A stretch of 64,000 bases of DNA from Bacteroidales bacterium (GCA_963676725.1 OY781463.1:2786398-2850397), one strand, 5' to 3'. Shown: positions 7,237 through 41,035, counted from the first letter of the stretch. Numbers and translations are program-made. Notes: generated by a model not told the origin, from the sequence alone.

Positions 7237-7244
7237 TTAAGCCC

Positions 7245-10025: not shown

Positions 10026-11483
10026 ATGAACAATACATCAAAGGCCATCCTATTCTTAAACAGGATAGAATTGGGCAATAAAAAGTGCATTAAACTGTAT
10101 TTCTGGAGTAATGAGTTAATATTGAAGCGTATAAAGGCCAATGGCTGGATTTGCTTTGATGTACAGCATAGCATTTATTATGTTGAGGAACAGGCAAATA
10201 CATTAGGGCTGCTTACAGAATTATTTGAAGATATTGCCCTTGTTCGTACTAAATATCTGGATAAGATACCCGGAACAGCACCAAAAAATAAAGAAGCAGT
10301 ATTGGGTACAGCTTTTGATACCTATCGTTTGAAGAAGCGAGAGTATTTGCCCGATTTAAAGATACTTACCGTAGAGTTAGACGGGAAAGTGTATTTGGGG
10401 ATCAAGGCATATTTCCCTAAAGAGATTTATTTAAAACTATCCAATGAAAAATTTATTCGATGGCACAACAAAGAAAAGATTTGGTATTTTGAGAATAGCT
10501 CAAGGAATTTTAAAGAAATATTTATATGTTTATCAGAGTTTTACACAATAAAATTAAGTGCAACGGTAGAAAATAAGGATTCACAGATCAGGCAGATGTT
10601 GTGGGAACAATCATATGAGAAAGGCAAATATTTTAAATCAGTGCCTATAGAATTTATTGAATATATGAGCCTGCACAATTATGCCGAGAACAGCATACAG
10701 ATTTATTATAATATGGTATTTCACTTTATCAATTCCTTTCGCCATAAAAGTCTTCAGGAGATCCATAGATTCAGTGAAAAAGAAATCGACCGTTATCATT
10801 TGGGTTTGACCGAAAGAAGAGCCTTATCTGCATCAACGATCAACCAATCGGTTAATGCCATAAAGCTCTATTATAAGGTAATAGCAGGAACACAGATACG
10901 GCTCAATGAAGTAAGTAGGCCCAAAATGCCTAAGATATTACCAAAAGTTCACAGTCAGGAAGATATGCAAAAGCTTTTGAATAGTATTGAAAATTTGAAG
11001 CACAAAGCCATAATCCTTTTGATGTATTCGTCCGGTATTCGCATCAGCGAACTGATTAGAATGGAGAAAAGCGATATAAATTTTGAGCGTAGGCTTGTTT
11101 TTGTGCAAAAGTCCAAAGGATATAAGGAAAGATATACGGTACTGTCGGATAATGCAGCAATGATTCTTCGTGAATACATAGCACAATACAAACCGGAAAA
11201 ATATTTGTTTGAGGGGCAGTATGGGCATAAATACACCGATACCAGTGTGCGCAAGATATTAGCAAACAATGAAATACGGGCAGGAATCAGTAAAAAAGGC
11301 GGACCACATGTTCTACGGCATTCCTTTGCTACCCATTTATTAGAGCAAGGTGTTGACCTACGTTATATCCAGGAGTTACTAGGCCATAATAGCAGTAAAA
11401 CCACAGAGATTTATACGCACGTAAGCACCAAAGATTTTGGGAGAATTAAAAGCCCCGGTGATTTTATTAAAATTTCATTGTAA
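10026..11483 (+). CDS. Integron-like tyrosine recombinase with long N-terminal extension and no IntI-specific insertion
   Basis: SGIRISE, KSKGYKER, HVLRHSFATHLLE, LLGH..TTEIYTHV; SASTINQSVNAI SAM-like region; adjacent to the cassette array. Confidence 0.9.
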   Translation: MNNTSKAILFLNRIELGNKKCIKLYFWSNELILKRIKANGWICFDVQHSIYYVEEQANTLGLLTELFEDIALVRTKYLDKIPGTAPKNKEAVLGTAFDTYRLKKREYLPDLKILTVELDGKVYLGIKAYFPKEIYLKLSNEKFIRWHNKEKIWYFENSSRNFKEIFICLSEFYTIKLSATVENKDSQIRQMLWEQSYEKGKYFKSVPIEFIEYMSLHNYAENSIQIYYNMVFHFINSFRHKSLQEIHRFSEKEIDRYHLGLTERRALSASTINQSVNAIKLYYKVIAGTQIRLNEVSRPKMPKILPKVHSQEDMQKLLNSIENLKHKAIILLMYSSGIRISELIRMEKSDINFERRLVFVQKSKGYKERYTVLSDNAAMILREYIAQYKPEKYLFEGQYGHKYTDTSVRKILANNEIRAGISKKGGPHVLRHSFATHLLEQGVDLRYIQELLGHNSSKTTEIYTHVSTKDFGRIKSPGDFIKISL

Positions 11484-11507
11484 TTCAAATTAGATTTTTT
11501 ATATTTG
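11478..11507 (+). promoter_or_regulatory. Pc-like cassette promoter
   Basis: TTG-N19-TATATTTG pointing into the array. Confidence 0.7.
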
Positions 11508-11599
11508 GAGTTGGAAAGAATGAACAAAATGAAGCCTCAAAGACCAATATCTTATTCTGCTGATCGAAAGCGTATTATAAACACACCATCTTCGCACAA

Positions 11600-11652
11600 A
11601 GTGGATGTATTGGTAATAGGGGGTTCTTATACACAGTAGTTAGGGCACATTT
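11600..11652 (+). other. attI-like site (crossover predicted at G/TT 11639); left boundary approximate
   Basis: GTTAGGGCAC complements the cassette end GTGCCCTAAC at 12759; no attC-type hairpin upstream. Confidence 0.75.
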
Positions 11653-11664
11653 AGAATAAAGAAA

Positions 11665-12753
11665 ATGAAACAATATTTAATTATAATTATATTGGTTTTG
11701 TCAGCATCTACAATATTCTCTCAAGAAGAAAAGTACTATAGTACAGAAGAATCTGATTATTACAAAAGAATTAAACACAAAAGGTTTCGTCCATTTTCCA
11801 AAAGACAAGCAAAATCACAGACTTTTGACTATATAAAAATACGACAGGACACTTCAAGAAACAACATGTATTCTGGTATTTATGATTATTACAAACCAAA
11901 TTCAAAGCCCATTGAATCAATAATAGGAAAGCATAATGGGACAACTTATCAGGTTTATGTCACACCTTCTTTAAATAGTGGAAATTGGGGATGCTGGCTT
12001 GAAATAGAAAATGAAAAAGAAAAAAAATCATATTACCTTGGCTTTACAATGGATTATTTCATCCACATTAAAGCAAAACAGACAATTCCCCTTGTAAAAA
12101 ATGATTCTATCATTCAAGTTCAATCAGCAATTGTTCGTCAAACCAAACCTGAAATCTTACCTATCGGTGGACCAGAGTTTAAATTAGTAAAAGATTATCT
12201 AATTATTGAAATCAATTTAAATCAAATTATAAAAGACTCAGACAATGACGGACTGACAGATATTGTTGAAGAAAGATTTCTAATGAATACAAAATCCGAA
12301 GATACTGATGGAGATGGCCTTAATGATTCATTTGATTCTAATCCAAGATTTAAGTCATGGGACACAGAAAAATCCAAACTGTATTCGTACCTGCTTAAAC
12401 ATCGACCAATGGATTCTGTGATTGTTGATACTAATATGATTTTCAAAGATGTTAATTTTCATAAGTACAAGAATCCAACCCTAATCGTTACAGATGAAGA
12501 ATCATTACAACATGTTAAACCACTGAATGTTAATGATTATTATATTATCATGTCAAAGTCTGAATATGATAAATGCAAAAAGAAATATCCAGTGGACATT
12601 AATAGGCTTTATGTTTCTCCTTTATTTAAGGTTGACAATGTTGGCAATTGCTATAAAATACATCTTAGCGGCGGATTTTGGGGAAATGACTATGTAATTT
12701 ACAAGTCAAATGGAAAATGGATTATTAAGAATATTGGTGGATACATAATATGA
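11665..12753 (+). CDS. Cassette gene: secreted protein with DxDxDG Ca-binding-like motifs
   Basis: Signal peptide; DSDNDGLTD and DTDGDGLND. Confidence 0.8.
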   Translation: MKQYLIIIILVLSASTIFSQEEKYYSTEESDYYKRIKHKRFRPFSKRQAKSQTFDYIKIRQDTSRNNMYSGIYDYYKPNSKPIESIIGKHNGTTYQVYVTPSLNSGNWGCWLEIENEKEKKSYYLGFTMDYFIHIKAKQTIPLVKNDSIIQVQSAIVRQTKPEILPIGGPEFKLVKDYLIIEINLNQIIKDSDNDGLTDIVEERFLMNTKSEDTDGDGLNDSFDSNPRFKSWDTEKSKLYSYLLKHRPMDSVIVDTNMIFKDVNFHKYKNPTLIVTDEESLQHVKPLNVNDYYIIMSKSEYDKCKKKYPVDINRLYVSPLFKVDNVGNCYKIHLSGGFWGNDYVIYKSNGKWIIKNIGGYII

Positions 12754-12758
12754 AAAAC

Positions 12759-12893
12759 GTGCCCTAACAAAAAATATAGTGCATTTGGCAGATAGTGCTT
12801 ATAATGAAGATTGGAGCAATAAAAAAATTAGTAGTAAATTGAAAATTTGGAGCGTAAAATGCCAAACGCCCCATATTCAAACCGTTATGCCCG
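12759..12893 (+). repeat. attC-like site 1
   Basis: GTGCCCTAAC..GCATTTGGCA//TGCCAAACGC..GTTATGCCCG. Confidence 0.88.
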
Positions 12894-13297
12894 ATTTTCT
12901 TTGCTGCGGTGTAGCGTTTTGGAAGGAAATTTTTGCGCAATTGTTCTTTGATACTTAAAAACCTGCAATCGCTTACAGCACTGGCCCACGCTTCGGAAGC
13001 AGGTTTTGCAGGACAAAAAAATTCGAGTTCCAATCCTAATTTTGTGATGAAACACGCAAAAATATTTTGATTTGCTATTGTACATTTGGGCTTTTTATTA
13101 ACTTTGGCTCTGGCCAGCGCATTTCAGCCAGCGCACAATGCCGACGCTATGTCCGGCGCACATTAAGAACCGGGCATAACCAAAGCTATTCCCCATAAGG
13201 GGTTTAATCGTTAAAACAAAGATTATGCAAGTGAAAATTATTAGTAGTAGATTGATAATTAGTGGTTTTGGAGTCCCTTACGTGGGATAGCTAGTCC
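12884..13297 (+). repeat. ORF-less cassette, copy 1
   Basis: 414-bp unit repeated at 13298 and 33292. Confidence 0.88.
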
Positions 13298-13307
13298 GTT
13301 ATGCCCG
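13171..13307 (+). repeat. attC-like site 2
   Basis: CGGGCATAAC..CATAAGGG//CCCTTACG..GTTATGCCCG. Confidence 0.88.
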
Positions 13308-13709
13308 ATTTTCTTTGCTGCGGTGTAGCGTTTTGGAAGGAAATTTTTGCGCAATTGTTCTTTGATACTTAAAAACCTGCAATCGCTTACAGCACTGGCC
13401 CACGCTTCGGAAGCAGGTTTTGCAGGACAAAAAAATTCGAGTTCCAATCCTAATTTTGTGATGAAACACGCAAAAATATTTTGATTTGCTATTGTACATT
13501 TGGGCTTTTTATTAACTTTGGCTCTGGCCTGCGCAGGCAGCAAACGCACAATGCCGACGCTATGTCCGGCGCACATTAGAACCGGGCATAACCAAAGCTA
13601 TTCCCCATAAGGGGTTTAATCGTTAAAACAAAGATTATGCAAGTGAAAATTATTAGTAGTAGATTGATAATTTGTGGTTTTGAAGTCCCTTACGTGGGAT
13701 AGCTGGAAC
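13298..13709 (+). repeat. ORF-less cassette, copy 2
   Basis: Tandem near-identical copy with boundaries exactly at GTT. Confidence 0.88.
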
Positions 13710-13719
13710 GTTGTGTGCC
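13583..13719 (+). repeat. attC-like site 3
   Basis: CGGGCATAAC..GTTGTGTGCC with the same arms as site 2. Confidence 0.88.
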
Positions 13720-13742
13720 ATATTAAGAGACCATGAATCACT

Positions 13743-14438
13743 ATGATAACGAGAGATTTTAAAACGGAGTTTGATAATTTGATTAAGGAAATAATTGCGC
13801 CGACTTTCAAAATGATTGGATTTAAAAAGAAAGCCAATAATTTCTATAAATCAACAAATGATTTGATTCAGATAATAAACGTTCAAAAAAGTCAATGGAA
13901 TTCAAAAGATGATATATCCTTTACTTTCAATATCGGATTTTTTAGTCCTGAGATTTTTTTAGAAACATGGGATAGACCAATACCTGATATTCCAAAAGAA
14001 TATGATTGTTTTATTAGTTTTCGTTCAGGATTTATAACTGATAAAAAGGATAAATGGTATGAATTGAATGAAAAGAACAACTACGACAAATTAAAAACTG
14101 CGATAAAATCTGACTTGCAAAAATCAGCAATTGATTTATTTGATAAGTATCAGACCTTGACTTCTCTAAAAGGATTGATTAATGATTATCCTGATTTACA
14201 AGTGACAATGGGAACAATTCCGAGATTTGTTTTTATGATGAAAACCGATTTGAAAAAAGATGCTTTAGATTTACTATTCACAGAGTATAAAAATGCACAG
14301 ATTCCTAAATCGAGTGTTTCAGTTATTAATTATCCAGACGGAAGGAGTGTTGAGACTAAATCAGAGCCTAAAATTAATAAGGGATATATAGACAGTTTGA
14401 TTAGGATTGCAAAGATGTATGATATTGAAATTAAATAA
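13743..14438 (+). CDS. Cassette gene: DUF4304-like protein
   Basis: GFKKKANNFY..INVQKSQWN..FTFNIG. Confidence 0.75.
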   Translation: MITRDFKTEFDNLIKEIIAPTFKMIGFKKKANNFYKSTNDLIQIINVQKSQWNSKDDISFTFNIGFFSPEIFLETWDRPIPDIPKEYDCFISFRSGFITDKKDKWYELNEKNNYDKLKTAIKSDLQKSAIDLFDKYQTLTSLKGLINDYPDLQVTMGTIPRFVFMMKTDLKKDALDLLFTEYKNAQIPKSSVSVINYPDGRSVETKSEPKINKGYIDSLIRIAKMYDIEIK

Positions 14439-14443
14439 AATAC

Positions 14444-14580
14444 GGCACACAACACGCGGTAAAAAACATTGGGGGTGCAGTGGGTCAGTCAACATACTGC
14501 CTCGCCCCAGCATCAGTAACGGTGGATACGAACGCAGCCCGTTCACCCCAACGATTTCTTACCGCCATCCGTTGTGTGTC
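14444..14580 (+). repeat. attC-like site 4
   Basis: GGCACACAAC..GCGGT..CATTGGGG//CCCCAACG..ACCGC..GTTGTGTGTC. Confidence 0.88.
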
Positions 14581-14594
14581 ATTAAAAAACAGAA

Positions 14595-15281
14595 ATGATA
14601 AATAAATTATATAATTTCCTTTCAAAGCCCTTCATAGTGATAGTCGTAATGATTGTTGCACCAATATTGTCTATTGCCGATAGAAATTTTGGGTACTTTT
14701 TTGGTCTTTTTATTGCTCTATTCTTGCTGTGGAAAAGTGGTTGGAATTGGGCGAAATTTGGGTTTGGGCAAAAAGTAAATCTCAGAACTATATTGAAAGG
14801 CTTATTACTTGCAATAGCTATATTTCTCATAATCGATATATGTATACAGCCATTTTTGGAAATATACTTTGGAAAGATTGATTTGAGTTCAATAGAGGAA
14901 ATAAGAGGGGATTTTGCCAGTTTTCTGCCTCTGTTTTTGATCATGTGGTTATTTGCCGCTTTTGGAGAAGAATTCTTGTTTAGTGGTTATTACATGAAAC
15001 ATCTCGCTGAATTATTTGGAGATTCTAACAAATCTTGGCTTATCTCAGCTATCGTACTTTCAGTTTACTTTGGAATTTCTCATAACTATCAAGGAACTTC
15101 TGGAATGATTGCCGTGGGATTAGCAAGTACAATATTCTTTTTTACATTTTACAAGTACAGAACTAATCTTGCTTTACTCGTATTTACACACGGTTTTTAT
15201 GATACGATTGGATTAACTCTAATCTACCTGAACAAGGACCGAATCTTCTATGATTGGGCCTTTCAACTTATAAATAAATGA
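14595..15281 (+). CDS. Cassette gene: CPBP/CAAX-type intramembrane protease
   Basis: GEEFLF, FGISH and HGFYD motifs; hydrophobic. Confidence 0.88.
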   Translation: MINKLYNFLSKPFIVIVVMIVAPILSIADRNFGYFFGLFIALFLLWKSGWNWAKFGFGQKVNLRTILKGLLLAIAIFLIIDICIQPFLEIYFGKIDLSSIEEIRGDFASFLPLFLIMWLFAAFGEEFLFSGYYMKHLAELFGDSNKSWLISAIVLSVYFGISHNYQGTSGMIAVGLASTIFFFTFYKYRTNLALLVFTHGFYDTIGLTLIYLNKDRIFYDWAFQLINK

Positions 15282-15284
15282 AAC

Positions 15285-16181
15285 GCCACACAATCGAGTA
15301 GGCTGCCGCTAGGCAGATTTGCCTAGCGGAGAACCTCTCACACCACTGTACGTACGGGTCTCGTATACAGCGGTTCGATACATATCGGCTTAAAGCTCTT
15401 TTCACCTTTAAACTTCTGCTCTAATTTAAAATAGGGCTAGTAAACTCGAGGTTTAGACCTCCCTATCGAATTTTAAGCAATGTATCGTTCAGTCCTTCAT
15501 CAACTTGTGAGTCCTCTGTCTTGTCCTATTCTTTCAGAGGGGACAGCTCGTTACTGTTGACTACTATGACTTCTGCTGACTTCTTGGCTTACAGAGAACA
15601 CGTCTGTTCCAAGACCTCCCCAGGTAAGAACCCTATCTTTCTACTTATGCCTGACACATCTACTAAGCAAGGATTATTGGTCAAGGGCTTTGCAAAGATG
15701 TGCTTGCTTACCCTCCCTGTTTAGCCTCATATGTGCTTTCTGTTTAGTTTACCCTGAGGTGCTCGAAGGGTCAGTACAAGTATTTGCAGTCCTGCTTCCT
15801 TCAGTGAATACCTCACGATAAACCACCTTGCAGCTTGCTAATCGGCTTTACCAACTTGCCGATAAGGGACTTTCACCCTCGAGATATTGTTCACCCACTT
15901 TTTGACTCTGAAAAATAAATTTGTATTTTTGACATTTTTCTAAAGCTTTCGGTGGGTGTGCTTAAGCTCATGCTGGGCACACACATGCTGTCATAAAACA
16001 TAAGGGCTACAGAGGTTTACGGGACTTCAGCGCATTTAATCAAGCCCGCCAAATCTTGCGATTTGACGCGTTGATTAAAAAGTTTAAATTTGTGTCTAAT
16101 CGCAACATTTGACTATGTGCAAACTTGATAGGGAAGCATTTCAAATCCCTTACGTTTCATACAGCAGAACCGTTGTGGGTA
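15285..16181 (+). repeat. attC-like site 5, interrupted by an intron
   Basis: GCCACACA|AC rejoined; CATAAGGG//CCCTTACG..GTTGTGGGTA. Confidence 0.85.
15293..15982 (-). ncRNA. ORF-less group IIC intron
   Basis: Starts GTGTGCCC, ends CTACTCGAT; domain V GAACCGCTGTATACG..CGTACAGTGGTGT; no RT ORF. Confidence 0.88.
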
Positions 16182-16201
16182 ATGCAAAAGCCTCGTGCAA
16201 A

Positions 16202-16591
16202 ATGACAGAGATAGAAATTAATATAAATAAATACGCTCAAAACAAGCTGACTGATTCCGAGATAATGGATTGGTTTGACCAGTTTGATTTGATAGGTCAA
16301 AAAGAGATTCGAGATAAGTTGATTATGTTCATGCAACAATCCCATCCAACTGACGAAATGATTTCTATAGCGATTCAGTCTGCACCGATTAAAGACACAA
16401 TGACACCTGTGGTACTTTTCAAAACCCAGAATTTTAAAATAGCGATTAACAAAATTGAGAAATTACCTGATTCTGAGTTGAGAAAATCATTTATAACCAT
16501 GTTGAGTATTTTCAAAACAGCAGATACACGTCGTAGAGAAACTGATTGTAAGAATGGATGTACTCATTTTTGGCATAATATAAAGGATTAG
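16202..16591 (+). CDS. Cassette gene: DUF5958-like protein
   Basis: ATG after the GTT core; C-terminal CKNGCTHFWHN. Confidence 0.75.
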   Translation: MTEIEININKYAQNKLTDSEIMDWFDQFDLIGQKEIRDKLIMFMQQSHPTDEMISIAIQSAPIKDTMTPVVLFKTQNFKIAINKIEKLPDSELRKSFITMLSIFKTADTRRRETDCKNGCTHFWHNIKD

Positions 16592-16830
16592 TGACTATGA
16601 AGTATAAATGGATTGCTTTATTATTTATTTCTGTTCTATTGACTGGCTGTTTTGGGTTATTTGATAGTGGAAGCAAACGGATTACTGGAAAATACATTGT
16701 AGTTTGGATTGACCTTCCAAGAAATCAAGGAATAGGCGAAGAAATTGAAGGAAGTCCAGGAAGTTCGATAGGTTTAGTCCCTGAGTATGTGTTTGCGGTT
16801 GGACACAATGAGGATTATATAATTGCAAAG
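16591..16830 (+). pseudogene. DUF3997-like lipoprotein truncated by IS1595
   Basis: LTGC lipobox; ORF runs into the IS end after DYIIAK. Confidence 0.75.
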
Positions 16831-17912
16831 GGTTATGTTGCAGTATAATGGAGAATTTTTATTACCTTTACGGTTATAAATACTGTTACTATGAATATAG
16901 ATGATTTACTTAAGAACCTGACTTCAGAAGAGAAAGAACAGTTATACACACTCCTAAAAAAGGACATTGGCATAACACCTCAATTGGATAAAATTAAATT
17001 CGAACTTAATCAGGGTCAAAAGATAGTATGTCCACACTGTCTTAGTAGCGACATTTATGGCCATGGCACATATAAAGGTAGAAAACGTTATAAATGCAAG
17101 CAATGCAAAAAAACATTTAATGATTTCACCGGAACTGCTGTTTCAGGCATTAAGAAAGTAGAAAAGTTTCAAGAGTATCTAGAACTTACGATTGAAAATT
17201 TGTCCATAAGAAAAGCCGCTAAAAAACTAGGGGTTAGCACCAAGACGATATTTGATTGGCGGCATAAACTATTGTCATCACTACAAACAATGAATGGAAT
17301 GGCATTATCAGGAATAGTTGAATGTGATGATAAACAGTTAGATATAAATGAAAAAGGCAAAAAGGGCTTGAATAGAAAACCTTATAAAAGGTCTAGTGAT
17401 AGAAAGAAAAAGCGAGGCATAAGTAATGACAAGATATCAATTATAGTGGCCACGGATCGAAAAGACAACCCTACTATGCGGATTGCAAAAGTAGGAAGGA
17501 TTGATGTAGAGAGTATTGAAAAAACCATTGGTGGTTTCATTGATCACAGCAATGTTCTTTGCTCTGATTCTCATCCATCCATAATATCTTGGGCAGGTAA
17601 AAAAGAACTCGAACACCACACATTCATTGCATCAAAACGACATGTAAAAAATAAATGTTATCATGTACAACATGTAAACTCTCTTGACAATTTATTTGAA
17701 AGATGGTTAAAGCCTTTTTATGGTGTAGCGACTAAATATCTGCAGCAATATCTAAATTGGTTTGTGTTTCATGAAAAAACAAAAAAGTCGTCAAACCCAA
17801 TGGCAGTCTTCACTAAAGCAATAATGTCAAACACGAATGCTATACGCGATTTTAGGTCAATCGAGAAAAAACACTTGGAATTAGATATTCCACTTTATTC
17901 TACAACATAACC
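16831..17912 (+). mobile_element. IS1595-family insertion sequence
   Basis: Imperfect terminal IRs GGTTATGTTG../..CAACATAACC; no target duplication. Confidence 0.88.
16891..17910 (+). CDS. IS1595-family transposase
   Basis: CPHC..CKQC Zn ribbon, HTH, VECDD, CSDS, HVQHVN. Confidence 0.92.
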   Translation: MNIDDLLKNLTSEEKEQLYTLLKKDIGITPQLDKIKFELNQGQKIVCPHCLSSDIYGHGTYKGRKRYKCKQCKKTFNDFTGTAVSGIKKVEKFQEYLELTIENLSIRKAAKKLGVSTKTIFDWRHKLLSSLQTMNGMALSGIVECDDKQLDINEKGKKGLNRKPYKRSSDRKKKRGISNDKISIIVATDRKDNPTMRIAKVGRIDVESIEKTIGGFIDHSNVLCSDSHPSIISWAGKKELEHHTFIASKRHVKNKCYHVQHVNSLDNLFERWLKPFYGVATKYLQQYLNWFVFHEKTKKSSNPMAVFTKAIMSNTNAIRDFRSIEKKHLELDIPLYSTT

Positions 17913-17966
17913 TTTTGATTTTGAGAGCCTCAAACTCTTGTATCAATCCGTAATAATTTAAACATC

Positions 17967-18566
17967 ATGATCGAAAATTATTCAATTGAAGATTTCAAAG
18001 ATTTTCTAAAAACATATATTACTTTACCTGAAAATGAGTGGAACCAGATAAAGTCAGAGTTCGAACTACACGTTTACCAAAAGAATGAAATGCTTTTGGA
18101 AGAAGGTTTCGTTTGCAGGTATTTTTATTTTTTCAATAAAGGATTAGTCCGTTTTTGCTGTAACATCGATGGTGAAGATATAACAAAGACTTTTTGTAAG
18201 GCTCCTTATTGTTTTACGTCTAAAATAAGTTTCCGCAATCAAACACCTGCGCGTGAAGCTATCCAGGCACTTGAAGAAACAGTTGTTTGGCGAATATCCT
18301 ATGAGCAATACAAAAGGCTTGAACAAATACCATCCTGGAATATTTTTATGCGAAAGCTGATGAATGAAATTCAGGAATTTCTTGAAAATCATTTGTTGGA
18401 GTCTAAAATTTTAACCGCTGAACAGTATTACGATAAGTTACTTCAGCGATTCCCTGCTGATTTTATGCAGAAAATACCACTGAAACATTTGGCTTCGTTT
18501 TTAGGCATTGCACCACAATCTATGAGTAGAATAAGAAACAACTTGCACGAAAATAGAAGAAGTTAA
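17967..18566 (+). CDS. Crp/Fnr-family regulator
   Basis: cNMP-binding-like domain; LASFLGIAPQSMSRIR HTH. Confidence 0.9.
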   Translation: MIENYSIEDFKDFLKTYITLPENEWNQIKSEFELHVYQKNEMLLEEGFVCRYFYFFNKGLVRFCCNIDGEDITKTFCKAPYCFTSKISFRNQTPAREAIQALEETVVWRISYEQYKRLEQIPSWNIFMRKLMNEIQEFLENHLLESKILTAEQYYDKLLQRFPADFMQKIPLKHLASFLGIAPQSMSRIRNNLHENRRS

Positions 18567-18631
18567 CATAGGTGAATTTTTATCTCTGCCTTTTGATTGA
18601 ATTTTGTATCAGATAAATAGGATACAAAATC

Positions 18632-19558: not shown

Positions 19559-19572
19559 ACAATCCATTTTTA

Positions 19573-20460: not shown

Positions 20461-20469
20461 AAAACCAAA

Positions 20470-21381: not shown

Positions 21382-21383
21382 AA

Positions 21384-22205: not shown

Positions 22206-22226
22206 CCTGAATAAAAAAATTTTTCT

Positions 22227-22999
<773 letters not shown>

Positions 23000-23003
<4 letters not shown>

Positions 23004-27334: not shown

Positions 27335-27338
27335 TTTT

Positions 27339-27352
27339 TTGACTTTTGTCAA
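27339..27352. promoter_or_regulatory. FNR/Crp-like palindromic operator
   Basis: TTGAC-TTTT-GTCAA right after the regulator gene. Confidence 0.6.
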
Positions 27353-27416
27353 GTAATCATTTCGAACAACATAGATATTTTTGTTTAAACATAACAAACT
27401 TTTAAAGAACAATACT

Positions 27417-29307: not shown

Positions 29308-29592
29308 GTTATGAGGATTATTAAATACATTACAGATTCCTTAGTGTCCCTTTAATCATATAAAAACAGAATATAAAAGCCCATGATAGTTCAATTTCTA
29401 AGACACTATTCGTCAGAACAAAACCATTGTCCTTCGAGCATTAACAACATATCAGTTTTTATGCAAACTAAGTATGTGTGATAGGAAAATATGCTATAAT
29501 AACTTTATACAAAAGGTGGTCATGAGGTAAATTCTGAGTTGGAAAACTAGAAGACAAATTAACACTTTCTTAAATAATTAAATTATACATTT

Positions 29593-30531: not shown

Positions 30532-30545
30532 CAGAATTTTTAAAA

Positions 30546-31463: not shown

Positions 31464-31606
31464 AAAGGAAATGAAAAAACGGGGGCTAATGTGTATAATT
31501 CATAAGGGTTTCAGAGATTTTCTAGCGTTGTTGCCCGCTTCAATTTTAGGTGGTAACTTGAAAGGTTTGAATCCCGCCATCCCTTACGAAATCATACACT
31601 TGCCGT

Positions 31607-33289: not shown

Positions 33290-33291
33290 CC

Positions 33292-33705
33292 GTTATGCCC
33301 GATTTTCTTTGCTGCGGTGTAGCTTTTTTGAAGGAAATTTTTGCGCAATTGTTCTTTGATACTTAAAAACCTGCAATTGCTTACAGCACTGGCCCACGCT
33401 TCGGAAGCAGGTTTTGCAGGATAAAAAAATTCGAGTTTCAATCCTGATTTTGTGATGAAACACGCAAAAATATTTTGATTTGCTATTGTACATTTGGCCT
33501 TTTTATTAACTTTGGCTCTGGCCTGCGCATTTCAGCCAGCGCACAATGCCGACGCTATGTCCGACGCACATTAAGAACCGGGCATAACCAAAGCTATTCC
33601 CCATAAGGGGTTTAATCGTTAAAACAAAGATTATGCAAGTGAAAATTATTATTAATAGATTGATAATTAGTGGTTTTGGAGTCCCTTACGTGGGATAGCT
33701 GGAAC
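33292..33705 (+). repeat. ORF-less cassette, copy 3, including attC-like site 8 (33579-33715)
   Basis: Near-identical to 12884-13297. Confidence 0.88.
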
Positions 33706-33754
33706 GTTAGCACCAATGTAGCCAAAACGATAGCACAACTTAAAAATTAGAGAT

Positions 33755-34864
33755 ATGAAGACTAAATTTATTTTCACCCTGATTTTAATATTTCCGACTT
33801 TGAGTATTTTCTCACAGGATTTAGTATTTAATCATGGAGGAGCCCTAAATGATGGAGTTTATGAAACAACACCCTTAACTCGATTTAATGAGATTTCTTG
33901 GAAAACTGAGTTAAAAGGGAAAGGGAATGAGGATTGTATTATTCACAGAGACGTGATTTACACGACCGCAAGAAAATACAACAGGGAGACTAAAACTCAT
34001 AAAAGCTATATTTATGCAATTAAGGCACATAGTGGAGAAGTAATTTGGTTAGACTCCTTAAACGGTAGAGTGTCAACTCCAAATATTAAGGATTCGATAC
34101 TGTATTATGGCGTTGATGAGCAGGACGGCAGACAATATGCAATAAATAAAGATAACGGTAAGATAATTTGGAGCATAACATCAAGGTATGCTGCATGTTG
34201 GCAACCTGCAATAATTGGTGACAAAAATTATTTTGGAAGCCACGGTGATAGGTGGTATGTTGTAAATAACATAACTGGTGATTTGATTCTTAAGGATACA
34301 ATTGACGGGGGTATTTGTTGTCGTCCTTCGATTTTAGATACGATGCTGTACTTTGTTGATAGGAAAGGATTACTTCATGCTTACAACACAAAAATTGATA
34401 AAGATATTTGGACTTTTAATTCGGGCGCTGGCTCAAATAATGCACCTGCAATTTATGAAGGCAAAGCATTTATGATAAATAAAAGTGGAGAAATATTTGC
34501 AATAGATTTAAAAACAGGACAGAAAATCTGGTCTTATAAAACAGGAGATACGATGTTTCGTTCACCTGCTGTTAAGGATAAAACGGCAACAGTGATTACA
34601 ACAAATGGATTGATATTTGCCTTTGATACTGAAAATGGTGAAATTAAGTGGCAACAAGAAAAGAAAGGACTTGGATATACGAACACGTCAATTGTTGACA
34701 ATATCGTTTATGTAGGTTGTGCAGATAATCATCTTTATGCTTTTGATTTGTATACGGGAAAAGAGATTTGGAATTTCAAAGCAGATTCTAAAGTTAATAC
34801 TCCATTGATTGATAATGAAACAGTATATTTTACAAGTGGAGAATATTTATACTCAATAAAGTAA
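33755..34864 (+). CDS. Cassette gene: PQQ-like beta-propeller (BamB-like) protein
   Basis: Repeated AxDxxTGxxxW motifs; signal peptide. Confidence 0.88.
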   Translation: MKTKFIFTLILIFPTLSIFSQDLVFNHGGALNDGVYETTPLTRFNEISWKTELKGKGNEDCIIHRDVIYTTARKYNRETKTHKSYIYAIKAHSGEVIWLDSLNGRVSTPNIKDSILYYGVDEQDGRQYAINKDNGKIIWSITSRYAACWQPAIIGDKNYFGSHGDRWYVVNNITGDLILKDTIDGGICCRPSILDTMLYFVDRKGLLHAYNTKIDKDIWTFNSGAGSNNAPAIYEGKAFMINKSGEIFAIDLKTGQKIWSYKTGDTMFRSPAVKDKTATVITTNGLIFAFDTENGEIKWQQEKKGLGYTNTSIVDNIVYVGCADNHLYAFDLYTGKEIWNFKADSKVNTPLIDNETVYFTSGEYLYSIK

Positions 34865-35000
34865 ACACTGGTGCTAACACGCGGTCATAAAACATTGGGG
34901 GCGAAGTGGTTATTCGAGCTTTGGTTCTCGCATCAAAGTTCATCGTACCTTGATAGAGAAGTAGCTCCGAAATCCCCAACGATTTTATACCGCCATCCGT

Positions 35001-36683
35001 CAGACTGTCTAAAAACCCCAAAACTTTCCCTCAAAATTGTTGATAACATTCCGACTTATCAACAGCTATAAATGCTTATTTATTAGTATATTCATAGCAT
35101 GAAATACATGATAGGAAAAGATCGAAACCAAGTATCAATTTTCCCCATTTCTTTGGATGAATCTATCCATAAAGATCATGAGGTGCGGATTATTGATCTT
35201 TTTGTAGACAGCCTTGAATTATCAGAAATGGGCTTTCGTGTAGATTTTGTGGAGAACGGAAGACCTGCTTATCATCCCAAAGACCTTCTAAAACTCTTTA
35301 TTTATGGCTACCTGAACAGAACACGCTCCTCACGTGAGCTCGAAAAAGAATGCACACGGAACATCGAAGTGATTTGGTTGCTTAAAGGCCTAAAGCCCGA
35401 CCATAATACCATTTCCAACTTCCGTCGCGACCATTCCAAAGCCATAAAGAATGTGTTTCGTGCCACGGTATGCATAGCCAAGAACTTAGAACTAATCGGC
35501 GGGAAACTGCTTGCCGGAGACAGCACCAAACTCCGGGCACAGAATTCCAAGAAGACCAATTATAATGCAAAAAAGATTGAGCGCCATTTGACCTATATCG
35601 ACAACAAACTTGCTACCTACCAGGAGCAGTTGGCCGAAGCTGATGGGGACAATCAAGCGCTGATACAGCAAGAGATTGAGAAACACAAAGAGCGCAAGCA
35701 ATTCTACCATGATATAGAACACCAATTAGAAGAATCCGGCGAAACCCAGGTATCCACAAGCGATCCGGAAAGCAGGCAAATGATCACCCGCAACAATATC
35801 ACCGAAGTAGCCTACAATGTACAAACAACGGTCGATTCAGCCCATATGATCCCCATCGATTATAAAGTGACCAATGAAAACGACAGCAAAGCAATGGGCG
35901 ATATGCTCCACCGCAGTAAAAGCATCATTGGCCACAATAATTTTACCGCCCTCTACGATAAAGGCTACCATACTGGCAGCGAGTTTCAAACCGCCCACGA
36001 TTTAGGTATAAATGTACTGGTTGCCATTCCTAAAGTAGCGGCCAATGCCCCCGATCCTCACTACAATGTAGAACACTTTCGATATGATAAAGACAAGGAC
36101 TGTTATCATTGTCCGCAAGGCCATGAGATGCACACAACAGGCAAATGGCATCAGGCGAAAACCTATCAATTTAAGCGTTATACAAGCCGCCAATGCCTAG
36201 GCTGTCCGGTAAAAGATAAATGCTCTAAGGCTAAATACGGCAAGGCAATACAACGATCTGAATATCAAGAGCATATAAATACAAATAAGGAAAACATAGA
36301 GAAAAACCTGGATTACTACCGCCGACGACAGGCAATTGTGGAACACCCATACGGCACCATCAAGCGACAATGGGGATTTAGCTACATAATGACCAAACGC
36401 AGCAAACAACGCGCCTCGGCGGATGTAGGATTTATATTTATTGCTTATAATTTACGTCGAATTATGAATATTCTTGGCATTCATGTATTTAAGCAATACC
36501 TTATTGCTTTATCTGTTCAAATAGCCTTTGTTTTGGCTTCCAGACACGTATTTTGCCGAAGGATAAAAAGCATTGCTGCCCAAAGGTATCGAAAAACAAA
36601 TGCCCTTAGAACGCAAATATTTGCTAAATTTATGCCGTATTTCGGTACAATTTAAAAGAGAACGGAGGTTTTAAGACAGACTG
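35001..36683 (+). mobile_element. IS1182-family element, copy 2 (1683 bp)
   Basis: Same IRs; CCGT at 34997-35000 and 36684-36687. Confidence 0.92.
35099..36655 (+). CDS. IS1182-family transposase
   Basis: Near-identical to 31705-33261. Confidence 0.93.
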   Translation: MKYMIGKDRNQVSIFPISLDESIHKDHEVRIIDLFVDSLELSEMGFRVDFVENGRPAYHPKDLLKLFIYGYLNRTRSSRELEKECTRNIEVIWLLKGLKPDHNTISNFRRDHSKAIKNVFRATVCIAKNLELIGGKLLAGDSTKLRAQNSKKTNYNAKKIERHLTYIDNKLATYQEQLAEADGDNQALIQQEIEKHKERKQFYHDIEHQLEESGETQVSTSDPESRQMITRNNITEVAYNVQTTVDSAHMIPIDYKVTNENDSKAMGDMLHRSKSIIGHNNFTALYDKGYHTGSEFQTAHDLGINVLVAIPKVAANAPDPHYNVEHFRYDKDKDCYHCPQGHEMHTTGKWHQAKTYQFKRYTSRQCLGCPVKDKCSKAKYGKAIQRSEYQEHINTNKENIEKNLDYYRRRQAIVEHPYGTIKRQWGFSYIMTKRSKQRASADVGFIFIAYNLRRIMNILGIHVFKQYLIALSVQIAFVLASRHVFCRRIKSIAAQRYRKTNALRTQIFAKFMPYFGTI

Positions 36684-36761
36684 CCGTTGTGTGTAAGTTA
36701 ATAACCTAACTGTAAAAGGAAAATATACGAGCTGAAAATAGAATTTTGACAATTACGAAAA

Positions 36762-37274
36762 ATGACTAAAAGTATTATTAATAATGATGTGATTTTTGAA
36801 AAGTTATCAGATGAACATAGGACATCTGTAATGGATATTTTTAATTTTTATATCGAGAATGAGTTTTCTGCATATCCAGAGGAGAAACTTAATTATGATT
36901 ACTATGATAATTTTTTAACCATATCAAATAAGTATCCCGCATTTGTAATCAAAGTAAAGGACAGAATTGTAGGATTTTGTTTTCTCAATTCTTACAATCC
37001 TGCCTCAAGTTTTAAGGAAACTGCCCAGATTACATATTTCATCGACATAGACTTTAAAGGAAAAGGGATTGGAAAAATGGCTTTAAATAAACTGGAAATT
37101 GAAGCTAAAAAACATGGCATTGAAAATATATTAGCAAATATTGCTTCTGTCAATAAGGAAAGTCTTGCTTTCCATTCAAAAAACGGATTCATAAAGTGTG
37201 GTGAATTTGAGAATATAATTAAGAAGAAAAATAAGAAATTTAATATTATCTGGATGCAGAAAAAATTGAATTAG
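36762..37274 (+). CDS. Cassette gene: GNAT N-acetyltransferase (phosphinothricin acetyltransferase-like)
   Basis: KGKGIGK and NKESLAFHSKNGF. Confidence 0.88.
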   Translation: MTKSIINNDVIFEKLSDEHRTSVMDIFNFYIENEFSAYPEEKLNYDYYDNFLTISNKYPAFVIKVKDRIVGFCFLNSYNPASSFKETAQITYFIDIDFKGKGIGKMALNKLEIEAKKHGIENILANIASVNKESLAFHSKNGFIKCGEFENIIKKKNKKFNIIWMQKKLN

Positions 37275-37401
37275 GTAAAACCTACACACAACATTTTGTA
37301 CAAGTAATGGCAGGTAATGTGTTAAATATCAAGGTTTGTAGCCCGCTCAAACTGCGTAGCGGTTTGACAGTAAATTACCACGCAATCTGCCACTACTCAT
37401 A

Positions 37402-39346
37402 GTGTGCCAAGAATCAACCACGGCAATAAACAGGTTGAATGCTGTAAATAAGATGATAGTAGGTCTATCAGGGTCGTTGTATAGGCGATGGCTTTAAACC
37501 ACCTAAAGATGCTGCAGTAAAGAGCTGTGGTGTTGAGCGTTTAGGAGAATCCTGTCCAAGAGGCAGGCAGGTATGGATAAAGGAGATGAACGAAAGTGAA
37601 CCATTGATGAGGTGTCGAGACGTTGCGTTACATCCAGTCAAAAGCTACGGAGTATGAGACGGAGTGAAAAAAGGTATGAAAAAAAAACATATCAATTGCA
37701 GAAGTTACCTATTTACTTTCTGTAAGGCTGGCGGCATTCAGATGGCATGAACTTTATCTAGGCTTATTTATGGAACTTGGGAACCTGGATATTGATGATA
37801 GATTGCAGGATGCTACCGCCAAAGGATTCGCAGGCAGTACGAAGGGAAATGCACGATAAGATCAACTTAGAGGCAGAATACCAATGCAATATTCAGGGGC
37901 AGACTAATCCGTAGTAGTGATGAAGTATCTGTAATGGAAACGGAGCGAAGGGATTAGGTTATACAGTATCATAACATTAAAACAACTCAGAACGAGGATG
38001 ACTTTATGGAATGAAACAAAATCGATACCGATAAGCCACTCAATGATTTGGGAGGCATATAAGAAAGTTAGGGCCAACAAAGGGAGTGCAGGAGTGGACG
38101 ATTTAGGCATGGAGGAATATGATTCTAGCAAAAGGAAACACCTGTACAAACTATGGAATCGTATGGCATCGGGGAGTTATTTTCCGCCAGCAGTCAAAGA
38201 AGTGGAAATACCAAAGAAAGATGGTAAAGTCAGGAAATTGGGAATACCCACAATCAGCGACAGGGTGGCACAGATGGCTATTAAAATGTATATCGAACCA
38301 AGGTTTGAGGAAATATTCAGTTCAAATTCTTATGGTTATCGACCGAAAAAGAATGCGCACCAAGCATTGCAAAAGGTACGGGAAAACTGTTGGAAGTCCA
38401 ACTGGGTAATAGATTTAGATATAAAAGGGTTCTTTGACAATATTAGTCATGCAAAACTGATGTTAGCAGTAGAGAAGCATGTACCGGAGAATTGGATAAA
38501 ACTCTACATAAAACGATGGCTCACAGCCCCAGTACTCAAAAAGACAGGAGAACTGATCACAAAGGAAGGTAAGGGAACGCCACAGGGAGGAGTTATAAGT
38601 CCTCTTCTGGCGAATTTATTTCTGTACTATGGCTTTGATAAATGGTTAGAACAAACTGACAAAACAGTGGACTACACAAGATATGCCGATGATGTGATAG
38701 TGCACTGTAGGAGTAAACAACATGCAGAACACATATTAAAGCGAATCAACCAACGGATGAACGATATTGAATTGGAGTTGCATCCAGAGAAAACAAAAAT
38801 TGTTTATTGTAAGGATTATCGGAGGAACGAAAAACATCCAGAATCTAAGTTTGATTTTTTGGGTTACTCTTTCCAACCCCGAACAACCAAATCAAAGAGG
38901 AACAATGGACTGTTTCTCGGGTTTGACTGTGCTATTAGTATAAGTTCAAGAAAGCGTATAGCTGACAAACTAGGAGAACTGGAAGTAGAGAGGATGACCT
39001 TTAAAAGTGTAGTAGGCATTGCCCAAAAATTGAATCCAATGATTCGAGGGTGGATACAATATTACGGTAAATTTAGGATATCCTCATTGCATACAGTTTT
39101 TAGAGGGTTAAATAAGCGTTTAACAAGGTGGGCAAGAAAACGGTATAAACGTTATAAGACAAGTATAAAGCGAGCATATAAATGGTTAGCAAGAGTACAG
39201 GAACAATATCCTTATTTATTCTACCATTGGCAGTTAGGATTTGTCTATTAATTAAGTATTTTTGTATAACAAGAGCCGTATGATGGGAGACTATCACGTA
39301 CGGTTCTGTGAGAGGCTCGGGGTGAAATTCCCCTTGCCTACTCGAT
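37402..39346 (+). mobile_element. Group II intron, class D (RmInt1-like), apparently intact
   Basis: 5' GTGTG; domain V GAGCCGTATGATGGGAGACTATCACGTACGGTTC; 3' CTACTCGAT. Confidence 0.92.
37998..39251 (+). CDS. ltrA: Group II intron RT/maturase without endonuclease domain
   Basis: LYKLWNRMASGSYFPP, GTPQGG, RYADD, KTKIVYCKD. Confidence 0.95.
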   Translation: MTLWNETKSIPISHSMIWEAYKKVRANKGSAGVDDLGMEEYDSSKRKHLYKLWNRMASGSYFPPAVKEVEIPKKDGKVRKLGIPTISDRVAQMAIKMYIEPRFEEIFSSNSYGYRPKKNAHQALQKVRENCWKSNWVIDLDIKGFFDNISHAKLMLAVEKHVPENWIKLYIKRWLTAPVLKKTGELITKEGKGTPQGGVISPLLANLFLYYGFDKWLEQTDKTVDYTRYADDVIVHCRSKQHAEHILKRINQRMNDIELELHPEKTKIVYCKDYRRNEKHPESKFDFLGYSFQPRTTKSKRNNGLFLGFDCAISISSRKRIADKLGELEVERMTFKSVVGIAQKLNPMIRGWIQYYGKFRISSLHTVFRGLNKRLTRWARKRYKRYKTSIKRAYKWLARVQEQYPYLFYHWQLGFVY

Positions 39347-39579
39347 CAATTTACCGTTGTGTGCAATACACCAAGACTGAAAAGGCAGGTTAATTTATCG
39401 AGTAATGGATAAAAACAAATAGCTAGTTAAAATAAGAGAAAAGGGAAACATAACTATCAAGCAATAAGCTTTGATGTTTATTGAAATCTAAATTGACTCA
39501 AATTAGATTATAGAACTTATAAATAAAAAAGTAATTACAGAGTAGTTAAATTTATTTGGAAATATAAAAATTAGAAATA

Positions 39580-40113
39580 ATGAGAAAAATCAAATTTATG
39601 TTGTTCTTTTTAACTGTATTGGTTTTTTCCAGTTGTGAAAATATGGTCAGGATTGATGAGATTGATAATGTCATATCAAAAAATGACCTTAACATACAAT
39701 TGAAAATTGATGTCGATAATGATTTTGAAATCCAAAAAGTTTTGGAAAATGAAAATAGTAATAGTCAATATCTGAAAATTGATGTTGATAATAAGTTTTC
39801 AATAAGAGGCAAAACGGATATTGAAATCAAAAAGAAATACAGACTGTCAATTACTTTAAAGAACATTAATACAAATCCTGTTATAATGTATTCTTTCTGG
39901 AAAGGACTTAAAACATCAGTGAGAAATTATACATTGGCAGGTGAAAATGGAAATCCACCGACATCAAAAACTCAGGACATATATAATGACTGGGTAACGT
40001 TTGATGATTTGTTTGAAGCTCAAGAAGGAGAAGATTCATTTATGCTGACTCTTTTTTGTGAAAGTGGCACATTTTACATAAAGGATATAAAAATTGAAGA
40101 AGTAAAAGAATAA
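39580..40113 (+). CDS. Cassette gene: hypothetical lipoprotein
   Basis: FSSC lipobox. Confidence 0.75.
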   Translation: MRKIKFMLFFLTVLVFSSCENMVRIDEIDNVISKNDLNIQLKIDVDNDFEIQKVLENENSNSQYLKIDVDNKFSIRGKTDIEIKKKYRLSITLKNINTNPVIMYSFWKGLKTSVRNYTLAGENGNPPTSKTQDIYNDWVTFDDLFEAQEGEDSFMLTLFCESGTFYIKDIKIEEVKE

Positions 40114-40118
40114 AGTAC

Positions 40119-40312
40119 TGCACACAATAAAATGTAAATGTAATGCGGGTTTCAGAGGGTATTTCAACCGCAGTTCTTCGTTGCAACACCGCCAATTCGT
40201 CTTTAACGATTGACGGAAAATTTGAAATATTGAATAAACGAATTGGCTCCGTGCAGAATTGAAAGTTCATCACTTTCAATCCCGCACTCCACTTACATAA
40301 ACGTTGTGGGTA
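40119..40312 (+). repeat. attC-like site 11
   Basis: TGCACACAAT..ATGTAA..TGCGGG//CCCGCA..TTACAT..GTTGTGGGTA. Confidence 0.85.
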
Positions 40313-40371
40313 ATGGTAGGAGAGCCAACTACACAGAAATAATTTGAAAAGAAATATTGAGATTAATAAAA

Positions 40372-40965
40372 ATGGGATTAGAAAAACAAGGGGCAAAACC
40401 AACTGGATTAATAGGGAAAATTATCGGAAGATTGATGAATAAATTTCATACTTCTATGTACACTGATTATTTTAATACTAAAGATATACCTGACAATTTT
40501 AGAATTCTTGACATTGGATGTGGTGGTGGAAAATTTTTAAACTATTTGTCTCAAAGAAGTGACGGATTTAATCTATGGGGAATTGACCACTCAAAAGAAA
40601 TGATTGATTTATCAAGTCAATTAAATAGTGAGGATGTTAAAAAAGGACGATTGAAATTGTTATGTGGCTCGGTTTCTAAAATCGAAATTGAAAATAATTC
40701 CATTGACTTAGTTACTGCATTTGAGACTATTCAGTTTTGGCCAGACATTGAAAATGCGTTATCTGAAATATTTAGGATTTTAGATAATGGAGGGCGATTC
40801 TTAATAATAAATAGATATCCAAGAGAAGGAACAAAATGGTGGAATCTGGCAAATATTAAATCAGAGAAAGATTATAAAACAAAATTGGATATTGCTGGAT
40901 TTATTGACATTTCAATCGATTTGAATTTTAAGGATGGTTGGATAATCGTAGAAGGAGTAAAATAA
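40372..40965 (+). CDS. Cassette gene: class I SAM-dependent methyltransferase
   Basis: KPTGLIG, ILDIGCGGG; ATG 40372 preferred. Confidence 0.9.
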   Translation: MGLEKQGAKPTGLIGKIIGRLMNKFHTSMYTDYFNTKDIPDNFRILDIGCGGGKFLNYLSQRSDGFNLWGIDHSKEMIDLSSQLNSEDVKKGRLKLLCGSVSKIEIENNSIDLVTAFETIQFWPDIENALSEIFRILDNGGRFLIINRYPREGTKWWNLANIKSEKDYKTKLDIAGFIDISIDLNFKDGWIIVEGVK

Positions 40966-40974
40966 TAAACCACA

Positions 40975-41035
40975 TACCCACAACAATTAAGCATCGTTTT
41001 CCGGCCTGAGCCGGAATATGTGCTTTGTGTTGAAC
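40975..41035 (+). repeat. attC-like site 12 (short, last in the array)
   Basis: TACCCACAAC..AAGCA..TTCCGGC//GCCGGAA..TGCTT..GTTGAAC. Confidence 0.65.

Follow-up and report, generated by a model that had tools for sequence, protein, structure and literature searches.

The 64,000-nucleotide stretch of DNA from a Bacteroidales bacterium analysed here (GCA_963676725.1, OY781463.1:2786398-2850397; the whole stretch is hereafter called the window) contains, between positions 10,026 and 41,035, a tyrosine recombinase gene followed on the same strand by an attI-like site and an array of integron-like gene cassettes. An initial annotation had proposed that this region is a non-canonical integron-like system whose recombinase lacks the insertion found in IntI. 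The recombinase and the array comprise the following features (window coordinates; ORF, open reading frame; IS, insertion sequence).

10026..11483, + strand: tyrosine recombinase, 485 aa, with a SAM_4 core-binding domain and a catalytic domain; no IntI insert
10044..10559, + strand: two tandem alpha/beta repeats of ~70 aa (aa 7-76 and 109-178), tentatively HARP/UvsW-N-like
11478..11507, + strand: candidate cassette promoter (Pc), TTG-N19-TATATTTG, overlapping the recombinase stop codon
11627..11645, + strand: attI-like site, with a TTATAC box, a 6-nt spacer and GTT; crossover either at the G at 11639 or immediately past it
11639..12883, + strand: cassette 1, one ORF (362 aa, family unknown); site s1 starts at 12759 and runs up to the GTT at 12884
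12884..13709, + strand: cassettes 2 and 3, the same 412-414-bp cassette twice, with no evident gene
13710..14570, + strand: cassette 4, DUF4304, site s4
14571..16171, + strand: cassette 5, CAAX protease-like; site s5, interrupted by an intron
16172..26742, + strand: unit 6, chimeric; DUF5958, a cut ORF, IS1595 (16831-17912), a seven-gene block, then site s6
26743..33291, + strand: cassette 7, five genes, 4.86 kb; site s7 from 31481, with IS1182 at the crossover
33292..33705, + strand: cassette 8, the third window copy of the gene-less 412-414-bp cassette
33706..36685, + strand: cassette 9, PQQ-like beta-propeller; site s9, with a second IS1182 at the crossover
36686..39355, + strand: cassette 10, GNAT; site s10, with a complete group II intron just past the hairpin
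39356..40302, + strand: cassette 11, a 177-aa lipoprotein-like ORF; long site s11 from 40119
40303..40984, + strand: cassette 12, class I methyltransferase; ends at its own R'' box
40975..41035, + strand: atypical terminal hairpin module, which replaces the normal site at the array end

At all twelve positions where the initial annotation had placed a unit start (11639, 12884, 13298, 13710, 14571, 16172, 26743, 33292, 33706, 36686, 39356 and 40303) the sequence reads GTT. Its further claim, that each intact unit ends in the reverse complement of its own start as expected for integrated circles, holds at 9-10 of 10 nt for 11 of the 12 units and fails for the unit at 16172. An exact 10-nt reverse complement of the start lies near the end of eight units (11639, 12884, 13298, 13710, 33292, 33706, 36686 and 40303); the units at 26743 and 39356 carry this circle signature at 9 of 10 positions, AAC being read as AAT, as does the unit at 14571 if the group II intron lying in its R'' box is disregarded. 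The unit at 16172, which has no circle signature, is interrupted by an IS1595 copy without flanking duplication and is, for that reason, probably a fusion of two cassettes. By chance, an exact 10-mer match within 5 kb was obtained for 0.87% of 3000 random GTTR starts from the same genome, and for 2.6% when AAT was also allowed.

Twelve hairpin sites had been predicted; eleven are full attC-like sites, with an AAC-to-GTT length of about 118-190 nt, and the twelfth is the terminal hairpin, a separate repeated module (conserved region 40975-41100) that also follows AAC-type R'' ends at ~10 other positions in the genome. The AAC lies 11-26 nt past the last stop codon, and the first ATG 24-76 nt past the GTT, each in 8 of the 9 gene-bearing units. 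The 20 cassette ORFs are on the + strand and have a GC content of 0.28-0.41 (one at 0.414), that of the array being 0.365. Pfam searches of the cargo identified DUF4304, a CAAX protease, DUF5958, cNMP-binding proteins, alpha/beta hydrolases, methyltransferases, a beta-propeller and a GNAT, and three cassettes are gene-less; the seven-gene block of unit 6 encodes a cNMP-binding protein, hydrolases, a methyltransferase and a condensation-like protein. The Pfam scan placed no window cargo in a named immunity family, although some of the DUFs may still be such, and with PADLOC 15 of 16 scanned proteins had no match, the remaining one giving a generic methyltransferase match. In two large multi-gene units (at 17967-19558 and 26771-28304), the first gene encodes a cNMP-binding protein and the next an alpha/beta hydrolase.

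The recombinase is co-oriented with the array and attI lies downstream, as the initial annotation had it, 155 nt past the stop codon. The Pc candidate follows the Bacteroidota -33/-7 consensus; of 75 Bacteroidota loci, 29 have TAnnTTTG between -30 and +90 relative to the recombinase stop, compared with 78 of 866 other gene ends. A second copy of this platform in the genome is 97.7% identical over 2165 bp, from a divergent ORF (9498) to attI, diverges right after GTTA, and is followed by other cassettes. The genome contains 17 attI-like platform regions, most of which align up to the GTT; 14 have TAnnTTTG, 2 have an intact recombinase, and several of the recombinase-less platforms retain recombinase remnants. 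With respect to the replichores, the bottom strand is on the leading template at 12 platforms and on the lagging template at 5, including that of the window, which is uninformative. Individual cassettes likewise recur with different neighbours, precisely from GTT to GTT: the 412-414-bp cassette in four genome copies that are 97-98% alike, and cassettes of 909 bp and of 1059 bp in two copies each, both at 99.9% identity. A strict census detected 24 sites genome-wide, compared with 1 in 1.5 Mb of shuffled single strand; a first genome-wide scan for the circle signature had been too loose (82 and 71 matches, mostly noise), and stricter detectors were substituted for it. On contigs from other samples, window cassettes appear in other contexts from unit starts onward (11639, 14569 and 16167), and there are joints that depart at 11642-11643 and 13712-13718, with intervening sequence that is not known; this comparison covered the window apart from 26400-41300, and thus does not extend to intron-free or IS-free alleles of the sites there. 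These findings support the idea that the cassettes would be mobile as units and that attI would be their insertion point.

Across the family of loci described below, the consensus of the sites is YAAC-A-N4-NTA...(variable)...C-GTTR, in which the A after AAC is conserved at 94% and the C before GTT at 97%. With the left spacer set to 5 nt, the right (L'-R') spacer is 6-10 nt, and within one array it ranges from 6 to 9 nt with no shared sequence. Because the hairpin detector used for counting units rewards bottom-strand G:T pairs, the strand bias it gave (120 of 136) was set aside and neutral site sets were used instead. Among sites picked by the circle signature alone, so that no hairpin score entered the choice, the bottom strand is lower in energy for 50 of 60 sites and in 14 of 17 loci; G:T mismatches there number 93 on the bottom strand and 26 on the top strand. 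The two arms of a site pair with each other at 10.2 of 14 positions, compared with 6.2 of 14 when the partner arm is taken from another locus. Of 35 ungapped sites, 31 have T:G at column 9, and several neighbouring columns show all four Watson-Crick pair types. The sites are thus attC-like and fold better as the bottom strand. Whole-site folding in the window is mixed (bottom-strand z of -0.9 to -4.9), so that the case for arm pairing rests on the arm alignments and the comparison across genomes. No Rfam family matches the sites in the window or in seven homolog loci, and an identity with the Flavo-1 motif was dropped.

Five of the 11 full sites are interrupted, by three group II introns and two IS1182 copies (a slash marks the point of insertion).

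15293..15982, - strand: group II intron (Rfam) without a reverse transcriptase gene, at GT/T in the bottom-strand R'' box of s5
24562..26622, - strand: group II intron with its reverse transcriptase in two frames, at GT/T of the R'' box of s6
37402-39346, + strand: complete group II intron, just past the hairpin of s10
31607..33289, + strand: IS1182, at CCGT/T of the R' box of s7, with a CCGT duplication
35001-36683: second IS1182, at the crossover of s9

Genome-wide, six of seven matches to the 5' end of the intron family lie at GT/TR on the R'' bottom strand (the one other match is no intron), as do 11 of 11 intron-like 3' ends, and the genome copies of IS1182 end at the CGT/T crossover at 8 of 8 left and 12 of 12 right ends. 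GT/TR on the bottom-strand R'' is the target of IIC-attC introns (PMC7923331).

The recombinase itself has an intact catalytic domain (PF00589, E 1e-41), in which R339, K364, H428, R431, H454 and Y463, the R-K-H-R-H-Y motif of tyrosine recombinases, are invariant across 111 homologs. The insertion-free motif quoted in the initial annotation is present as quoted. Relative to IntI1 the protein lacks 32+9 aa, the IntI insert (termed I2) being 41-42 aa; it matches the integrase model TIGR02249 at positions 6-179 and 235-312 only, with 180-234 unmatched, and scores 181 bits against a cut-off of 265. The family members measured have 89-90 aa separating the first catalytic R from HxLR (apart from one at 94 aa and one mismeasured), and 20 IntI have 130-132 aa. 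A home-made insert profile, built from 11 IntI, gave 59-104 bits for 11 held-out IntI and -1.5 for the window recombinase, and it had no match in the six frames of the genome. Nor does the enzyme score as XerC (189 bits, cut-off 335) or XerD (182 bits, cut-off 330). It narrowly passes NF040815 (220.8, cut-off 220), and its best matches in the PDB, by sequence and by fold, are the archaeal XerA structures 4a8e and 5hxy. XerA resolves chromosome dimers at dif. The AlphaFold model (predicted local distance difference test score 92.7) superposes on VchIntIA with a root-mean-square deviation (rmsd) of 2.9 over 254 residues.

An extra N-terminal region of ~190 aa had also been pointed out, and we measure ~195 aa. 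It contains two repeats that are homologous to one another (hhalign 99.5%) and that we describe, with weak to moderate confidence, as HARP/UvsW-N-like. HARP and UvsW-N bind forks. A profile of the repeat matches the HARP domain of SMARCAL1 (4o66) with an E of 0.007; the best fold match is UvsW (1rif; Z 6.1, rmsd 2.4, 62 aligned), with 4o66 at Z 3.5. Pfam HARP is matched by 5 of the 111 homologs and not by the window recombinase, Foldseek with the whole model found the recombinase domain alone, and the ESM Atlas returned for the repeat only unnamed Bacteroidota clusters, with scores under 0.9. Although both the extension and the co-orientation hold for the window, they vary across the family, whose members carry 0-3 repeats and include one with a divergent array. 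Two repeat-less homologs head arrays of 8 and 11 units; the repeats are therefore not an obligatory replacement for I2.

Homologs of the recombinase are also linked to arrays. We examined a first set of 80 loci, 41 of which had at least 1.5 kb of downstream sequence, and a second set of 20 profile hits picked for long contigs, 19 of which had 10 kb downstream; kin are not independent, and the linkage figures are descriptive counts. In the first set, the 327 kb of downstream sequence contained 136 units on the strand of the gene and 14 on the other, compared with 5 and 4 units in 547 kb upstream, and at least one unit was present in 30 of the 41 loci and at least two in 22. In the second set there were 63 units in 191 kb downstream versus 3 in 103 kb upstream, with at least one unit in 16 of the 19 loci and at least two in 12. 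The circle signature alone, used as a detector, gave 60 linked pairs downstream and 0 upstream, and in 21 loci the array starts 28-243 nt past the stop codon of the family member. At E 1e-70 the recombinase profile has hits in 112 of 301 Bacteroidota genomes. Family members with attI and cassettes, and with sites of 56-212 nt, also occur in Nitrospirota, Spirochaetota, Thermodesulfobacteriota (Thermodesulfobacterium) and a Micrarchaeota metagenome-assembled genome. The proposal of a distinct Bacteroidetes gene-capture system is thus upheld in that the enzyme is neither IntI nor XerC/D and its homologs carry arrays, but the system is not confined to that phylum. In four of the loci from outside Bacteroidota (L016, L026, L027 and L047) there are repeated palindromes upstream of attI, in the first 120 nt past the recombinase stop, which are perhaps accessory binding sites.

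Members of the family also lie immediately before the resistance genes tet(X3) and blaVEB-3 on Acinetobacter and Klebsiella plasmids; in these loci (L081, 5052-7300; L083, 6136-7757) a short recombinase gene stands ahead of the resistance gene, and an attI-like GTT precedes each of the two. Downstream of tet(X3) there is an apparent left arm of a site.

All three trees group IntI together (support 100/99-100) to the exclusion of the family. The window recombinase falls outside the XerC/D clade. When archaeal XerA-like sequences were included, the 27 family rows (tree rows were thinned), among them the enzyme of a rAID-type cluster considered below, formed one group, with moderate support (93/90), from which the XerA-like rows were excluded, and the family, IntI and five XerA-like rows were together separate from XerC/D (97/86). 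Without the archaeal rows the monophyly of the family was left unsettled (19% of bootstraps; approximately unbiased (AU) test, p 0.34). With those rows present, a constrained tree uniting the family with IntI was not rejected (AU p 0.72). The family may be either sister or ancestral to IntI.

The cassette anatomy, the reshuffling at GTT borders, the missing IntI insert, the compensatory pairing of the arms, the bottom-strand bias and the family-wide linkage of recombinase and array are shown by these data. By every sequence test that we ran, the feature behaves like an integron, and it is on the insert, the clade and the extrahelical G that the enzyme and its sites depart from IntI. We consider it probable that the stretch is an integron-type gene-capture system whose cassettes are reshuffled at exact GTT borders, with the adjacent insert-less recombinase as the likely mover, and we have similar confidence in the prediction that this recombinase would recombine attI in double-stranded form with an attC-like site whose bottom strand is folded. 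In this scheme, the recombinase would cut at the R box (R/TT) and release cassettes as circles, which would be re-inserted at attI, just behind the promoter that overlaps the recombinase stop codon, by one strand exchange followed by replicative resolution, as in integrons. The choice of strand and the block to a second exchange may come from the asymmetric unpaired spacer (5 nt versus 6-9 nt) and from the T:G wobble in the L stem, the HARP-like repeats may help, optionally, to capture single-strand/double-strand junctions, and the two intact enzymes of the genome may serve its many recombinase-less attI arrays in trans; we infer these roles of the wobble, the repeats, Pc and action in trans. 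Bouvier et al. (PMC2727003) report that attC sites remain recombinogenic when they have no extrahelical bases, polarity in that case being set by the spacer; this fits an I2-less enzyme acting on sites with a more lopsided spacer.

Several observations weigh against this reading. In IntI, I2 is described as required to read the extrahelical bases and to block the second exchange (PMC4792948), which makes its replacement by other features hypothetical. The early L-arm bulge (first six positions) seen in 3 of 82 family sites, versus an extrahelical G in 12 of 12 canonical attC with the same aligner, is set against a control of 12 sites from only 2 related loci, 15 of the 17 fetched IntI loci having given fewer than three sites and been dropped; moreover, extrahelical bases are variable rather than absent, since in the window a G bulges from the bottom-strand L'' of s5 and s9 and a T from the opposite arm of s4, s7 and s9. 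As whole sequences, s1, s6, s7 and s8 fold weakly (bottom-strand z of -0.9 to -1.7). For the N-terminal repeats, the case for HARP is weak, with Z under 8 and no Foldseek match for one repeat at E 0.001. Eleven of the 41 and 3 of the 19 homolog loci are unit-less at the strict threshold; with a looser threshold, several of the unit-less loci do show attI and a first cassette. The array of one of the three blank loci in the second set lies upstream on the other strand; this arrangement, which is that of canonical integrons, is seen at L164, where the family member is short. Finally, recombination was not observed: the sequencing data examined are assembled contigs, which is why no circle or exact deletion joint appeared in them, and this proves nothing. 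The action of the window recombinase, rather than of another enzyme, on the sites is a prediction.

We weighed three other explanations. In the first of these, the same enzyme would move the same cassettes by recombination between double-stranded sites, L'-spacer-R' serving as a simple site with a second strand exchange and the hairpins being vestigial or having another role. The missing I2 insert, the archaeal XerA as closest solved relatives by sequence, and the double-strand two-exchange activity that IntI retains as an ancestral trait on attI x attI (PMC4792948) speak for such a scheme, yet the R'' of every cassette follows that cassette's R', covariation of the arms extends over 14 bp with the bottom strand favoured, and it is the bottom strand in its folded form that introns target. 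Recombination by two exchanges requires spacers that match. The L'-R' spacers vary from 6 to 9 nt within one array and share no sequence, which argues against two strand exchanges on duplex DNA, and we regard this possibility as unlikely.

It is more doubtful still that another enzyme, either host XerC/D or an IntI acting in trans, works the arrays and that the window recombinase is a passenger or moves only the platform. This would account for the 15 of 17 attI-like platforms that lack an adjacent intact recombinase, and the platform of the window adjoins an element with integrase-, excisionase- and primase-like genes. The genome, however, has no IntI above the cut-off (one of the 41 genomes searched has one) and no six-frame match to the insert profile, recombinase remnants persist at several orphan platforms, the arrays of 21 loci begin close behind a family-member stop, and the sites are unlike the 28-bp dif sites. 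The idea that the arrays are by-products of group II intron and IS targeting and of homologous recombination between repeats, rather than site-specific cassettes, draws on the intron or IS1182 in 5 of 11 sites and on unit 6 as an IS-made chimera; it would not predict circle signatures or exact GTT-to-GTT copies with new neighbours, and long clean arrays free of introns and IS elements (L024, L028 and L049) largely refute it, so that we give it very little credence.

The initial annotation could not confirm that the system was undescribed, and it proves to be described in part. Ross et al. (10.1101/471110) report recombinase-associated acquired interbacterial defence clusters (rAID-1) of gut Bacteroidales, which they call integron-like and which, like the window system, have a XerD-like recombinase at the 5' end, genes of low GC content in one orientation, and motifs that repeat between the genes and are called reminiscent of integrons. 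A rAID-type cluster of B. ovatus (L082) has an insert-less recombinase in the same clade as the window enzyme, which is 40.3% identical to it, and, at 10 of the 16 genes tested, an 8-9-nt circle signature built on ATT cores; the identity that defines rAID-1 (>44% to BF9343_RS08045) was compared via this proxy only. The window array has at least 2 co-directional downstream genes with a GC content <= 41%, as rAID-1 clusters do, and no recognised orphan interbacterial immunity cargo. It differs further in its cores and sites (GTT and ~120-200 nt, versus ATT and ~45 nt in B. ovatus), in its general cargo of hydrolases, methyltransferases, GNAT and gene-less cassettes rather than immunity genes, and in the two N-terminal repeats of its recombinase. 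The window system is thus a close relative of rAID-1, for which the available text of Ross et al. defines no attI, attC, cassette or mechanism (its supplementary figure S4 may add on motifs).

Canonical integrons consist of IntI, attI, attC and Pc (class 1, Vibrio and Treponema chromosomal integrons). They share with the window family cassette circles joined at GTT, the R''-5 nt-L''...L'-R' layout, the conserved A after AAC and C before GTT, a variable terminal structure, bottom-strand folding, a promoter before attI (a candidate one in the window family), recombinase-less satellite arrays and targeting by IIC-attC-like introns. Their attC sites conserve an extrahelical G in L'' and, further along that arm, a T. 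Unlike them, the family has no I2 insert, forms a separate clade, has a rare extrahelical G, a conserved T:G wobble and an L'-R' spacer of 6-9 nt, places attI 3' of a usually co-oriented gene, and has optional HARP-like repeats and a five-gene cassette of 4.86 kb. Smyshlyaev et al. (PMC8138268) note that the insert is not fully conserved in an 'integron-like' subgroup of tyrosine recombinases, for which their table gives 71 Bacteroidia, 144 Flavobacteriia and 49 Cytophagia members; these Bacteroidota members are likely the family of the window recombinase, and the subgroup is, in the part of the article considered, a classification of proteins alone, without arrays or sites. The same lumping of Bacteroidota proteins as integron-like is repeated in PMC13597742. 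Cury 2016 (PMC4889954) judged recombinases without intI_Cterm near attC not to be IntI, and the IntegronFinder 2 survey (Neron 2022, PMC9024848) lists, in the portion considered, one complete Bacteroidetes integron (Salinibacter); related literature includes PMC8618304, PMC9668308, PMC13700133 and 10.1101/2024.07.02.601686. In a search that mostly did not reach subscription journals, we found no published account of the cassette anatomy, the sites or the phylum-wide spread.

Upstream of the recombinase and downstream of the array lie two further annotated features.

9499..9867, - strand: divergent ORF of 122 aa whose N-terminus has a treble-clef zinc finger (DUF2116-like; PF09889, E 5e-7)
41271-41639, - strand: IS91-like remnant (Pfam Y2_Tnp), downstream of the terminal hairpin

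The zinc-finger ORF is identical beside the second platform copy, where the shared block begins at 9498, and in 25 of 66 loci with enough upstream DNA such an ORF lies divergently, 65-206 nt from the recombinase; it is possibly a regulator or accessory factor. The ESM Atlas returned only unnamed Bacteroidota clusters for it. Between this ORF and the recombinase start, in both platform copies, the sequence GTTAGGGCA (9899-9908) resembles the R box of the first cassette and is possibly an autoregulatory site, or there by chance. Upstream of the ORF, at 9307-9420, a short duplicate of recombinase codons 260-297 (84% aa identity) is a remnant of an earlier recombinase copy. The region from 2159 to 8943, just after uvrA, encodes an integrase, two HTH_17 proteins, one of which resembles an excisionase, DUF3987 and a primase-like DUF6371 protein, and is likely an integrative element directly upstream of the platform. 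An RHS repeat-associated core protein is encoded downstream of the array (46014-47426).

Taken together, the results incline us, on balance, towards the view that the family is a second, phylum-wide integron lineage, which would use folded single-stranded sites without I2 or an extrahelical G by means of a lopsided spacer and a T:G wobble, may preserve a state that preceded IntI, would include rAID-1, and would likely have assembled the tet(X3) and blaVEB-3 units before these reached Proteobacteria. Since the family occurs in 112 of 301 Bacteroidota genomes and usually heads arrays, a large pool of cassettes has been overlooked. The origin of I2 and the extrahelical bases has been described as a chicken-and-egg problem (Escudero et al., PMC4792948), and an I2-less enzyme with sites that mostly lack the extrahelical G makes this question directly testable. 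The recombinase is a candidate tool for structure-specific recombination with rules different from those of IntI, and the system may explain how some resistance genes, tet(X3) and blaVEB-3 among them, were first packaged.

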